Part shown: piece after piece, positions 4,798 through 27,680 of the stretch
How the letters are laid out: every line of letters starts with the position of its first letter
How positions within the stretch are numbered: position 1 is the stretch's first letter
Source of the DNA: Shigella phage CM8
Length of the DNA stretch: 64,000 nt
Sequence record: MK962750
Direction: 5' to 3' (one strand)
The notes under the pieces: model-generated
The model's input: only the letters and a program-made list of their open reading frames with translations
What the model was told of the DNA's origin: nothing
Database searches by the model: none
Made by a program: the position numbers and the translations under genes

Positions 4798-5016
4798 TTA
4801 TTTCTCTAATATAAAATAAAAATCATCATCTGTTAAATGATACCTGTAATTTAATTCTACACCATTAGATTTAAAAGCGGTATCATACGGATTTTCTGGA
4901 TCAATATCAATGTCAAGAGCTAAAACTTCCCTGAGATACATTTTAAGTAAATAGGGAATAGCTTCAACTTCAGGTATTTCTTCCAAGAATCCGGAGAGGT
5001 TAATCGTTAGCCTCAT
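4798..5016 (-). CDS. Hypothetical small protein
   Basis: 72-aa ORF immediately downstream of gene 55. Confidence 0.35.
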
Positions 5017-5557
5017 ATAAAAAATCCAAACTAGGAGAATCGTCTACAACACTTTTCTTTTCAGCCCCCGGTGTTCTATAGGTTGATTCTTCGTAATGCG
5101 TCATTTTATCGTAAATGTCTTGAATAAAAGTTTCATCTACTAACGCAACCATATCGTCGTCACGGCTGTCATAGACATTGTGAACGAAGTAACTATATTT
5201 CTTTGCAACTTCCTTACGTTCTTTTTTAATACGTTGGACGAATGCATTAAAACAAGCTTGAGTTATATACGCATGTGGGTTTTTATATTTCGTTTCATCA
5301 AAATTATGAAGCCCCTTAATAGAAGCTTCTATACCATCTGCAATCATTTCTTGTTTCCAAGACTGGGTGTATCCTGAAAAGTTGAAACGTTTAGATAAGC
5401 CTTCTGCAATAAGCATAATGGCTAATCCGATAGTATCATTCTGACGAACTACTTTATTTGGGTCTTTATTATTTGCTAATTCTGTTTTCCAATCAATAAT
5501 AGCTTGTAAAAGCTCTTTATTGTTTACGTAATTATATTTAGGCTTAGTTTCTGACAT
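5000..5557 (-). CDS. 55: Late-transcription sigma factor gp55
   Basis: ATG at 5555-5557 preceded by GAGGTG; product [23 protein letters not shown]... is 185 aa, matching recalled T4 gp55. Confidence 0.9.
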
Positions 5558-24466: not shown

Positions 24467-25048
24467 CTAACCGAGCTTTTTAGTTAATTCATTCCAATGT
24501 TTTCTACACAAAGAAACATAAATTTCATCACCAATACAGATTTGATTACCTTCTTTAACTGGTGTTCCATCTTCCATTAATCGAGCTGTCATAATAGCTT
24601 TTTTACCACAATGACAAACTGCCTTTAGTTCAATAAGTTTATCTGCAATCGCCAAAAGTTCTTTAGAACCTTCAAATAATTTTCCAGCGAAATCAGTCCT
24701 TAGCCCATAAGCCATAACAGGAACATTATATGTATCAACAATTCGACTTAATTGATGCACCTGTTTAGTTTTTAAAAACTGAGCTTCATCTACAAATACA
24801 CAATGAATATCTTTTTGTGCTTCAGCCCATTTATAGAACTCAAAAATATCCATATCATCCGTAATAATATTCGCTTCCTGCTTAATTCCAATGCGAGAAA
24901 CGACTTCACAGACAGAATCACGAGTATCAATAGCAGGCTTAAGAACTAATACACCCATTCCGCGTTCTTTATAATTATGTGCAGCAGTCAAAAGAGAAGC
25001 AGATTTTCCAGCATTCATTGCTGCGTAAGTAAAAATTAAACTCGCCAT
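24467..25048 (-). CDS. tk: Thymidine kinase
   Basis: 193 aa; P-loop NAGKSASLL; zinc-ribbon cysteines CHCGKKA...C; matches recalled T4 Tk. Confidence 0.92.
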   Translation of the reverse strand: MASLIFTYAAMNAGKSASLLTAAHNYKERGMGVLVLKPAIDTRDSVCEVVSRIGIKQEANIITDDMDIFEFYKWAEAQKDIHCVFVDEAQFLKTKQVHQLSRIVDTYNVPVMAYGLRTDFAGKLFEGSKELLAIADKLIELKAVCHCGKKAIMTARLMEDGTPVKEGNQICIGDEIYVSLCRKHWNELTKKLG

Positions 25049-25057
25049 ATCACCTTC

Positions 25058-25243
25058 TTAAAGCGTATTCACATAAGCTATTAATTCGTTTTCTTTCTTA
25101 TCAAACCGATCAGCAAATTCTTCTTGCTGATCGGGAGATAGCGGGCCGTATTCATCATAAAAGGTGTTTGCTTCTGTATGCTCATCTAGAAGTTCATGGA
25201 TAAGCTCAAACAATTTATCTTTTTGTTCTTTACTCAGACTCAT
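25058..25243 (-). CDS. Hypothetical small acidic protein
   Basis: 61-aa ORF. Confidence 0.35.
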   Translation of the reverse strand: MSLSKEQKDKLFELIHELLDEHTEANTFYDEYGPLSPDQQEEFADRFDKKENELIAYVNTL

Positions 25244-25409
25244 ATATTAATTTCCAGGAGTTTTAAAATAATTCGCTTTTGCTTAAATATTTCCATAGTT
25301 AAATGACCAGTATCTTTTTGACCGATTCCAATGGCAAAACCTTTATTGACAGCGAGTTCAATTAAATTATCAAGCTCACGTAACACTTCATATTGTAACT
25401 CAAAACTAT

Positions 25410-25616
25410 TCATTTCGGTTTACCTTCTTTAACGAAATCAGGATAAGGATAAAATCCTGAATAAAATCCTTCACCTTTATGATTGATGCATCCTTTATTA
25501 GAACAATAGCACCAATAATCGAAATCACAAGCCATTTCATCATTACATAAAGCAAAAACAACTGGCCATTCACACTTTTCGCAGTGGGCATTTTTAAGAA
25601 TACTGGTTTGGCTCAT
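25410..25616 (-). CDS. Hypothetical cysteine-rich small protein
   Basis: ATG at 25614-25616 overlaps the upstream stop; many Cys/His (CEKCEWP...CDFDYWCYCSNKGCINH). Confidence 0.4.
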   Translation of the reverse strand: MSQTSILKNAHCEKCEWPVVFALCNDEMACDFDYWCYCSNKGCINHKGEGFYSGFYPYPDFVKEGKPK

Positions 25617-25825
25617 AACCATGTAACCTTTAAACAATATTCTTCTACATGTTGTTTACGACCTTTCCTATCAATAAAGGTATATTCAACGAATGTTCCA
25701 ATATAGTCTTTATCTACATCATGTGGACTATTAATTGGGCATTTAGTACGGCAAATGCGTTCCCATTGACGAATAATTTCCACTTTGTTTTTAGGATCAA
25801 ACGGATGCGGGTAATGTACTTTCAT
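25613..25825 (-). CDS. Hypothetical small protein
   Basis: 70-aa ORF. Confidence 0.4.
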   Translation of the reverse strand: MKVHYPHPFDPKNKVEIIRQWERICRTKCPINSPHDVDKDYIGTFVEYTFIDRKGRKQHVEEYCLKVTWL

Positions 25826-26276
25826 AATCCACCACTATTAAATCAATATCAGGAGTAAACATGTCGATTAATTTAGAAACCTTATCCCAATCGCCGCCAG
25901 CAATACCGCAACCTATGCGTGGAATGTAAATTACTGGTTTAAACAAAAGGGTTTCTGCCTGTAGATTTAATTCTATCATGCAGTTTACTAAAGCACCATA
26001 ATCAAGATTAGGACCCGGTTCGTATTGTGTATACAGGTTATAGCATATACCAAATCCCGTAGGACTATGTTTAAAAACAATAGACATATCGCCTAATTTA
26101 TCACGAGAACCGTACTCGGTAGTGGTTTTATCTATTTCTAAAATTTTGGGATAGGCTCTTGCTAATTGACCCGCTACGCCAGAGCCCATTGTGTGGAAGC
26201 AATTGCACCCGTGCGCAATAATATTACCTTGAAGAAATAGGGCGACAATATCGCCCTTGATATATTTTACAATCAT
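25797..26276 (-). CDS. Macro-domain-like protein (putative ADP-ribose binding/processing)
   Basis: 159 aa; KGDIV...NIIAHGCNC...MGSGVAGQLA and later IPRIGCGIAGGD parallel the macro-domain core (VNAAN...GGGVxGAI and ISTGVYG), as recalled. Confidence 0.5.
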   Translation of the reverse strand: MIVKYIKGDIVALFLQGNIIAHGCNCFHTMGSGVAGQLARAYPKILEIDKTTTEYGSRDKLGDMSIVFKHSPTGFGICYNLYTQYEPGPNLDYGALVNCMIELNLQAETLLFKPVIYIPRIGCGIAGGDWDKVSKLIDMFTPDIDLIVVDYESTLPASV

Positions 26277-26614
26277 CTAGTACTCAATCCTCGATTATAA
26301 GAATCTACTAAACGGTCAACCATTGAATGACAAGCGGCTTTATCTTTCTCCTCCGCAACTGAACATTCTAAAGTATTCCACTTTTTAGCATATCGTTTTA
26401 ACAATGTATCATTTTTATATCTGCTTGATTTATCTCTTTCTCCGTCTTTATATGCATATATTAATTTCTGCGCAAATTCAGCTTGGCATGCTTTATTTTT
26501 CCCACAATAATCCGCGGCAGTACGGTTTACATACTCTCTAATTTCAGTATATGATGTATCTGCTAACGCAGAAAATGAAATTAATCCTATACATAAAACC
26601 AAAATTTTAGTCAT
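26273..26614 (-). CDS. Hypothetical secreted protein (cleavable signal peptide predicted)
   Basis: 113 aa; N-terminus MTKILVLCIGLISFSALA; four cysteines. Confidence 0.45.
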   Translation of the reverse strand: MTKILVLCIGLISFSALADTSYTEIREYVNRTAADYCGKNKACQAEFAQKLIYAYKDGERDKSSRYKNDTLLKRYAKKWNTLECSVAEEKDKAACHSMVDRLVDSYNRGLSTR

Positions 26615-27152
26615 TTACTATTTCCAAAAGTTTATTATTTTTAAGGTAATTAGCCTTTTCTAGGACTTCAGAAGCATATTTAGAACCAGCTTTAACATTC
26701 CATCCCGAATTATAAGAGGATATTGCTTTTCTTATATCGCCCTTATGTATATTTAACCAATAAGAAAGTTCAATGTACGCCCAGGAAGCTGAATTGGATC
26801 GTTTATTCAACATTCTTTTTATTTCAGCATCGGTCATATTATAACCAAGTTCCTTAACTCTTGCTCGCATAGTAGGCAAATAATTTTGGAACATTCCATA
26901 AGCGTGATGCTTTGGTTTAGATTTTAAATTAACTCCGCCAGAGCTTTCTTGCCATAAAATAGCAGCCATTATATGACCTAATCCGCTCTTGTGGATATTT
27001 TTGTGTGTTTTATATTTTCCATCCTTAGAAAATTGTTCCCCGAATTGATACGCGTAACGCATGTTATCGAGTTGGACATTACTGAAAGTATGCTCGGAGC
27101 TATGTGCCATCATTGAAATGGCCAATAGACCAGCGAGTAGTGCTTTTCTCAT
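26607..27152 (-). CDS. Secreted lytic-transglycosylase-like protein (SLT domain)
   Basis: 181 aa; signal peptide; catalytic-region motifs ILWQESSGG and AYGMFQ typical of the lysozyme-like SLT fold. Confidence 0.6.
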   Translation of the reverse strand: MRKALLAGLLAISMMAHSSEHTFSNVQLDNMRYAYQFGEQFSKDGKYKTHKNIHKSGLGHIMAAILWQESSGGVNLKSKPKHHAYGMFQNYLPTMRARVKELGYNMTDAEIKRMLNKRSNSASWAYIELSYWLNIHKGDIRKAISSYNSGWNVKAGSKYASEVLEKANYLKNNKLLEIVND

Positions 27153-27159
27153 GCTTACC

Positions 27160-27621
27160 TCATTGAGTTTTAATTACTGCTTTAGAAGCCTTTCCTGGTA
27201 AACGACGACTGTTAATAATTGCCATCCTACATTGAAGTGACGGGTCTTTGAACTTCGCATTAGGTTTACAAACTGTAAATCCAAGCCAAAGATTTCCATC
27301 TGTGATTTCTAAACGTCCAGGACGGTATTCAACCCCATCAATAAAATCCTCGTCAATGTCAGGACGCGGAGGCATACTCAGGAATTCATTAACTTCTAAA
27401 ACATGGTCTTTTATTTTGTGGAATAATTCAAAAACATATGTCTCATCAATCTCCCGTTGAATTGCACGATCAAGAAGATGCTGAGAATATTTTAGATGAA
27501 ACGATGAGACCCCTGCTGCTTTTGATGCCTCACGAATCTCATTGTTAATTTGACGAAACTCCGACTCAAAGTGACGACGAAGCTTATTTCGACGGATAAA
27601 AACTTCTGTGTTGATAGTCAT
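27160..27621 (-). CDS. regB: Sequence-specific endoribonuclease RegB
   Basis: 153 aa, MTINTEVFIRRNKLRRHFESEF..., matching recalled T4 RegB in length and sequence. Confidence 0.85.
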   Translation of the reverse strand: MTINTEVFIRRNKLRRHFESEFRQINNEIREASKAAGVSSFHLKYSQHLLDRAIQREIDETYVFELFHKIKDHVLEVNEFLSMPPRPDIDEDFIDGVEYRPGRLEITDGNLWLGFTVCKPNAKFKDPSLQCRMAIINSRRLPGKASKAVIKTQ

Positions 27622-27639: not shown

Positions 27640-27680
27640 GATAGAAAAATTATACCACAGTCAAGAGGAAAAGTAAACAG
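27640..27680 (-). promoter_or_regulatory. Early-promoter-like module upstream of regB
   Basis: gtaaac at 27673-27678 with upstream tataccacag -10-like region. Confidence 0.45.

Follow-up and report, generated by a model that had tools for sequence, protein, structure and literature searches.

Genes and signals at the tk.4 locus

The window analyzed here, a 64,000-nucleotide stretch of Shigella phage CM8 (record MK962750), is a segment of a Tequatrovirus (T4-like) genome. Its ORF listing includes an ATG-started frame encoding 159 aa on the minus strand, at 25797..26276, which an earlier note had described as a macro-domain-like protein in the accessory block from tk to regB. The motifs quoted in support of that description are all found in the 159-aa translation: KGDIV at residues 7-11, NIIAHGCNC at 18-26, MGSGVAGQLA at 30-39 and IPRIGCGIAGGD at 118-129. 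The location was also correct, with tk downstream and regB upstream on the same strand. In transcription order, the tightly packed string reads regB, vs.1, vs, the tk.4 ortholog, tk.3, three small ORFs and tk (Table 1).

The start codon of the tk.4 ortholog overlaps the stop codon of vs in an ATGA sequence, suggesting that the two genes may be translationally coupled, and a Shine-Dalgarno-like site precedes it. The last 29 nt of the gene overlap tk.3. A strong sigma-70-type promoter-like site lies just upstream of regB and is likely to be the early promoter for the regB-vs.1-vs-tk.4-tk.3 string. We infer that tk.4 is transcribed from this site because the ORFs on this strand are so tightly packed.

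Table 1. Features of the tk.4 region of phage CM8, in window coordinates. Residue numbers refer to the 159-aa protein.
Feature	Coordinates	Strand	Evidence or remark
Promoter-like site, sigma-70 type, TTTACT-17-TATAAT with extended -10 TG	27649..27677	-	Consensus scan, 10/12 matches
regB	27160-27621	-	153 aa; upstream of tk.4 ortholog; 99% identical to T4 RegB
vs.1	26607-27152	-	100% identical to T4 counterpart
vs	26273-26614	-	97% identical to T4 counterpart
Shine-Dalgarno-like site GAGGA of tk.4 ortholog	26287-26291	-	Sequence
ATGA overlap of tk.4 start codon and vs stop codon	26273..26276	-	ORF coordinates and sequence
tk.4 (= adfM) ortholog CDS	25797..26276	-	ORF; Pfam Macro; PHROG 335 E 1e-71; AF2 pLDDT 93.7
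Codons H22-G23-C24-N25-C26 (HGCNC)	26199..26213	-	N25 is the conserved macro-domain Asn
Codons M30-G36 (MGSGVAG), first Gly-rich ADP-ribose/phosphate-binding loop (predicted)	26169..26189	-	Conservation and alignment
Codons N80-L-Y82-T83-Q84	26025..26039	-	Q84 at the catalytic-Lys position
Codons P119-W130 (PRIGCGIAGGDW), second Gly-rich phosphate-binding loop (predicted)	25887..25922	-	Conservation and alignment
tk.3	25613-25825	-	91% identical to T4 counterpart
Cys-rich ORF, Pfam Phage_zn_bind	25410-25616	-	No T4 counterpart in region (BLASTP)
ORF phrog_3452	25240-25413	-	No T4 counterpart in region (BLASTP)
61-aa ORF, DUF7438	25058-25243	-	T4 Tk.2 match only 54%
tk	24467-25048	-	193 aa; downstream of tk.4 ortholog; 98% identical to T4 Tk

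The two genes that precede tk.4 have features of their own. Vs, annotated as a "valyl-tRNA synthetase modifier", has a signal-peptide-like hydrophobic N-terminus (MTKILVLCIGLISFSALA), which is odd for a supposed modifier of a cytoplasmic synthetase. Vs.1 likewise begins with a signal-peptide-like hydrophobic stretch (MRKALLAGLLAISMMAHS) and contains an SLT transglycosylase domain (Pfam E 1.4e-5). In minimal medium, vs was the most depleted gene of the HIDEN-SEQ study (preprint 10.1101/2025.11.20.689424).

Orthology with T4 tk.4 and annotation history

The 159-aa protein is 58% identical to T4 Tk.4 (NP_049723) over 155 aa without gaps (E 1e-70). T4 Tk.4 is its unique reciprocal best match, and the gene order from regB to tk is the same in both phages. 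Sequence and position thus mark ORF 25797-26276 as orthologous and syntenic to T4 tk.4. The two proteins share the locus between vs and tk.3, the length class (155 versus 159 aa), a single-domain architecture, the Gly loops, and the invariant residues H22, N25 and Q84. They differ in the second Gly loop, which reads CGIAGGDW in the CM8 allele and AGIGKGNW in T4, and in a 4-residue C-terminal extension of the CM8 allele, which overlaps tk.3.

The earlier note had treated the gene as unexplored, but it is already known: its A1pp/macro annotation dates from 2006 or earlier, and a function was assigned in 2025. A table published in 2006 gives the A1pp (macro) match for tk.4 orthologs, and this match is all that the paper records (PMC1524935). 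The T4 RefSeq entry lists tk.4 between vs and tk.3 as a 155-aa "phosphatase; contains A1pp phosphatase motif", and GenBank records with the identical sequence label the product "macro domain protein", "phosphatase" or "Poa1p-like family protein".

Fold and class of the macro domain

Profile searches and structure prediction upheld the proposal of a macro domain, with a similarity that far exceeds chance. Pfam PF01661 (Macro) matched the protein with 32 bits (gathering cutoff 22 bits; E 1.3e-7) over profile positions 2-117 of 118, and PHROG 335 matched at E 1e-71. The product consists of this one macro domain and has no second domain. When PDB sequences were searched with phmmer, only macro domains were returned at significant E-values (4e-10 to 4.9e-5): Bacteroides BT1257 at 4e-10, yeast Poa1p at 1.6e-9, Streptomyces coelicolor SCO6735 at 8.5e-8 and the Mycobacterium tuberculosis (Mtb) DarG macro domain at 4.9e-5. 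The match to TARG1 was marginal in this search (E 0.01). A profile built from 72 homologs gave BT1257 at 3e-19, TARG1 at 6e-17, SCO6735 at 1e-15, Poa1p at 1.5e-14 and Mtb DarG at 1.4e-11.

The AlphaFold2 model computed on the 72-homolog alignment (pLDDT 93.7, pTM 0.88) has the three-layer alpha/beta/alpha macro fold, with disorder limited to the last three residues. The top Foldseek matches of the model were TARG1, BT1257, Poa1p, DarG and SCO6735. Its closest structural neighbors are ALC1-like members, and it stands well apart from the MacroD, viral and PARG classes. On this model, the protein belongs to the ALC1/TARG1-like class, as a macro domain that stands alone.

Predicted active site

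The ADP-ribose-binding features predicted from the sequence are the conserved asparagine N25 and two Gly-rich loops. In alignments, the first loop falls on the MGAG/MGKG loop found in TARG1 and DarG, and the second on PRIGCGLDRLQW of TARG1 and PRIGCGLAGG of SCO6735 and BT1257. The aligned counterparts of H22 and N25 in SCO6735 are His24 and Asn27, and H22 also aligns with His23 of Poa1p. Q84 falls at the position of TARG1 Lys84, DarG Lys80 and the lysine of the PTK motif in PhiKZ gp104, and it matches Gln85 of SCO6735 and the corresponding glutamine of BT1257 and ALC1. The placement of Q84, N25 and H22 in the putative active site rests on three concordant sequence alignments, which for Q84 are the TARG1 profile, pairwise comparison with BT1257 and SCO6735, and a MAFFT alignment with nine references, among them DarG, SCO6735, BT1257 and PhiKZ gp104.

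Twelve of these and nearby positions (H22, G23, N25, C26, G33, A35, D49, N80, Y82, Q84, P119 and W130) are identical in all 118 family members. M30 is conserved in 115 of the 118, and G122 and G124 in 117, where the single exception is an alignment gap. With profile, predicted fold and conserved residues in agreement, the structural assignment to macro domains with a predicted ADP-ribose-binding core is fully supported.

The Lys84/Asp125 catalytic dyad of human TARG1/OARD1 (4J5R/4J5S) is absent from the 159-aa protein, which has Q84 and, in the profile alignment, A126 at the corresponding positions. Because an invariant Gln takes the place of the catalytic Lys and an Ala that of Asp125, the chemistry of Tk.4 is probably not Lys-based like that of DarG and TARG1.

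Comparison with characterized macro domains

A precedent for a glutamine-type active site is S. coelicolor SCO6735 (5E3B), which with Bacteroides BT1257 (2AFC/2FG1) forms a Gln-type group of ALC1-like proteins that are 26-28% identical to the CM8 protein. SCO6735 lacks both the Lys and the Asp, yet it efficiently cleaves thymidine-linked ADP-ribose on DNA and rescues cells from DarT (PMC9411070). Q85A/E abolishes the activity of the enzyme, changes to Asn27 and Gly128 weaken it, and a water-mediated mechanism has been proposed (PMC9411070). The residues of this subclass are present in the CM8 protein: Q85, H24, N27 and CGLAGG of SCO6735 correspond to Q84, H22, N25 and CGIAGG. There are also clear differences. 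SCO6735 and BT1257 have an extended mobile loop after the Gln, where the CM8 protein has a 6-residue gap; K34 and K89, which position DNA on an electropositive surface in SCO6735, are replaced by S32 and G88; the calculated pI is 5.0 for the CM8 protein compared to 9.7 for SCO6735 and 8.7 for BT1257; and SCO6735 is a cellular genome-protection enzyme rather than a phage counter-defence protein. The Tk.4 family is therefore best described, from these sequence comparisons, as a separate Gln-type lineage of the SCO6735/BT1257 class.

We considered whether the gene could be a captured darG and ruled this out. The protein scored 27.7 bits against the NCBIfam DarG equivalog NF048014 (cutoff 250), and the match covered model positions 2-142 of 338, which is limited to the macro half, so the C-terminal DarT-binding domain is absent. 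With the PADLOC DarG model, the CM8 protein scored 27.5 bits and T4 Tk.4 36, compared to 132.9 for PhiKZ gp104. The DarG macro domains of Mtb (5M3I), Thermus aquaticus (Taq; 5M31/5M3E) and Thermosipho (7OMU) are about 20-22% identical to the CM8 protein, in which Gln replaces Lys80; the local motif is YTQ in the CM8 protein and PTK in Mtb DarG, Taq DarG and PhiKZ gp104. The genes next to the tk.4 ortholog are vs and tk.3, and there is no darT toxin gene nearby.

PhiKZ gp104, from a chimallivirus, is likewise a stand-alone phage macro domain that acts against DarTG2 (PMC13309987), and it is similar to the CM8 protein in size and acidic pI. It removes DarT2-made ADP-ribose from DNA in vitro (Cell Rep 2026, PMC13309987). 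However, gp104 is a DarG-like protein of the Lys type, with the PTK motif and an E-value of 9e-25 to Mtb DarG, and it is imported into the phage nucleus, a structure that T-even phages do not have. A single family for gp104 and Tk.4 was ruled out, given about 21% identity, only two short BLASTP segments and a different catalytic residue. By these comparisons, T4-type AdfM arose independently of PhiKZ AdfM. The name AdfM has thus been given independently to two non-orthologous proteins, the Gln-type Tk.4 of T4 and the Lys-type gp104 of PhiKZ, a clash of names that deserves notice; according to the PhiKZ paper, an Adf of the macrodomain type had not been reported before (PMC13309987).

Two allele classes of tk.4

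The 480 bases of the gene (25797-26276) are identical in Shigella phage Sf21, Escherichia phage vB_EcoM_OE5505, the BASEL phages Paracelsus and WilhelmHis, and others. Two common, deeply diverged allele classes of tk.4 occur among T-even phages: 311 records have the CM8 type (at least 90% identity) and 224 have the T4 type. These types are 58% identical, whereas the flanking genes tk, tk.3, vs, vs.1 and regB are 91-100% identical. At the nucleotide level, identity with T4 is 100% over the last 24 nt of vs that were compared and the first 62 nt of tk.4, and then collapses. Both alleles look functional, because each retains the predicted active-site residues.

A perfect 8-bp GC-rich hairpin (AGGGCGATATTGTCGCCCT, 26239-26257, both strands) spans codons 7-13 of tk.4, is identical in T4, and is placed exactly where CM8/T4 nucleotide identity falls from 100%. 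This hairpin may mark a recombination boundary, or it may form in the mRNA and affect translation. The hairpin had been flagged as terminator-like, but a terminator is unlikely at this position within a conserved coding region. The tk.1/tk.2 segment (25058-25637, minus strand) also differs from T4 and forms a second mosaic patch adjoining the divergent tk.4 allele.

The divergence between the alleles could reflect an arms-race switch in specificity, directed at DarT2 variants, at inhibition through interaction with the toxin, or at another nucleic-acid substrate such as U-ADPr RNA, and coupled to a Lys-independent Gln/water chemistry that is undescribed for phage counter-defence enzymes. We regard this elaboration as speculative and, on balance, unlikely.

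A predicted role in DarTG2 counter-defence

The functional assignment of tk.4 comes from T4 genetics. When a T4 transposon library was grown on a DarTG2-expressing host, tk.4 was the sole significant hit, and a clean tk.4 knockout became DarTG2-sensitive (HIDEN-SEQ preprint, 10.1101/2025.11.20.689424). The authors of that study renamed the gene adfM, for anti-DarT factor macrodomain, and proposed that AdfM removes ADP-ribose from DNA, citing its structural similarity to Mtb DarG. The knockout phenotype fits an earlier observation: T4 without adfA and without the NADAR gene adfN still resists DarTG2, a result that pointed to an additional factor (PMC11825919). Our literature search found the preprint as the only link between tk.4 and ADP-ribose biology, and no biochemical assay of T4 Tk.4 or the CM8 allele. 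The anti-DarTG2 evidence is genetic, from a preprint, and was obtained with the T4 allele, to which the CM8 allele is only 58% identical.

The general idea in the earlier note, that the protein reverses ADP-ribose chemistry in phage-host conflict, stands. The evidence does not favor the contexts it named, namely reversal of marks made by Alt, ModA and ModB, ADP-ribose-derived signals and NAD depletion; the genetics of the T4 ortholog point instead to DarTG2, a toxin-antitoxin system that ADP-ribosylates thymidine in DNA. We prefer the DarTG2 context on the basis of those genetics and because the closest studied relatives, SCO6735, DarG and TARG1, are hydrolases of thymidine-ADPr DNA.

We therefore propose, with a probability of roughly 0.7, that Tk.4 of CM8 is an orphan, enzyme-only, antitoxin-like hydrolase that removes DarT2-made ADP-ribose from thymidines of phage DNA through a Gln-type active site. 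The protein would probably be expressed early, as part of the regB-vs.1-vs-tk.4 string. Infection would release the host DarT2 toxin, which would ADP-ribosylate thymidines of single-stranded phage DNA and thereby block replication. With its two Gly-rich loops and N25, Tk.4 would then bind the ADP-ribose and hydrolyze the N-glycosidic bond between ribose and thymine, freeing ADP-ribose and restoring the base. Its glutamine would be arranged as in SCO6735, which requires this Gln and for which the proposed mechanism is mediated by water. Counterpoints to a DNA hydrolase of this kind are the missing K34, K89 and extended loop of SCO6735 and the acidity of the CM8 protein (pI 5.0), given that SCO6735 is strongly basic, but PhiKZ AdfM, which is equally acidic, is active on DNA (PMC13309987).

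Alternative substrates and activities

DNA may not be the only target of Tk.4, because enzymes of the SCO6735 type accept U-ADPr RNA and proteins as well. SCO6735, TARG1 and DarG hydrolyze U-ADPr on single-stranded RNA (PMC13036486), and SCO6735 and TARG1 act on protein substrates as well (PMC9411070). By analogy with these enzymes, an RNA- or protein-directed side activity is plausible. That ADP-ribosylated RNA or protein is instead the main substrate, whether U-ADPr RNA, Glu/Asp-linked protein ADPr, the Alt/ModA/ModB marks or the product of another host ADP-ribosyltransferase defence, seems to us quite unlikely. T-even phages do meet an RNA-ADP-ribosylating defence, CmdTAC, but this defence remains robust even when the T-even phage has tk.4, and the adenine modification made by CmdT is described as irreversible (PMC13036486). 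The CmdTAC paper does not connect the system with tk.4 or with macro domains of phages, and DarTG2 sensitivity is the only genetic phenotype found for the gene (10.1101/2025.11.20.689424).

Reversal of the phage's own Alt, ModA and ModB marks is unlikely on chemical grounds as well as genetic ones. These enzymes make Arg-linked ADP-ribose, and no ALC1-like macro domain is known to cleave that linkage. The database labels "phosphatase" and "Poa1p-like family protein" in RefSeq imply another activity, that of a small-molecule enzyme acting on NAD-derived metabolites as an ADP-ribose-1''-phosphate phosphatase and/or O-acetyl-ADP-ribose deacetylase. No Appr-1''-p source is known in T4-infected E. 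coli. The "phosphatase" label was taken from what the SMART A1pp domain is called and not from an assay, and yeast Poa1p (6LFQ-6LFU), a small-molecule Appr-1''-p phosphatase, lacks the Gln and has Ser at the position aligned with Q84. Since the sole known phenotype of the T4 ortholog is also DarTG2-specific (10.1101/2025.11.20.689424), we consider a Poa1p-like function very unlikely. Least credible is a role apart from hydrolysis of a DarT2 product, in which the protein would act as a non-catalytic binder or sponge, degrade ADP-ribose-derived signals such as the cyclic ADPR isomers of Thoeris, or block DarT2 by binding it. The residues linked to catalysis in its relatives (N25, Q84 and H22) are invariant in the 118 members, a pattern typical of an enzyme; the nearest neighbors are hydrolases and not readers; and the protein has no DarT-binding domain. 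Removal of DarT2-made ADP-ribose from DNA remains our preferred reading.

Distribution and implications

A megablast search matched the tk.4 ortholog to 556 phage records, and by tblastn 2788 of 50,697 phage records contained relatives, including phages of Escherichia, Klebsiella, Salmonella, Pseudomonas, Vibrio, Acinetobacter and others. A bacterial family member from Pelagimonas is stand-alone and has no DarT neighbor. No tk.4 family member was found in T5, which is DarTG2-sensitive (HIDEN-SEQ preprint, 10.1101/2025.11.20.689424); this single data point is consistent with an anti-DarTG2 role. A metagenomic contig of an unrelated phage (Logan ERR3585466, positions 541-888 and 5001-5447) carries a 43%-identical macro-family member. 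An Acb5 (anti-CBASS) family gene and a gene for a polyA-polymerase-like nucleotidyltransferase lie some 4 kb away from it, with dUTPase and RNR genes also near. This neighborhood hints at a group of anti-defence genes.

Naming the CM8 gene correctly keeps a tk.4 ortholog from being reported as new and replaces the misleading label "phosphatase". Our analysis adds to the preprint that the protein is not a DarG, having Gln in place of Lys, that PhiKZ AdfM is a separate lineage, and that the CM8 allele is only 58% identical to that of T4 inside conserved flanks. The two very different tk.4 alleles are open to experimental comparison. Defence against phages through DarT-mediated ADP-ribosylation of DNA is widespread, and T-even phages appear to stack counter-measures to it, namely AdfA, the NADAR enzyme AdfN directed against DarTG1, and the macro domain directed against DarTG2.
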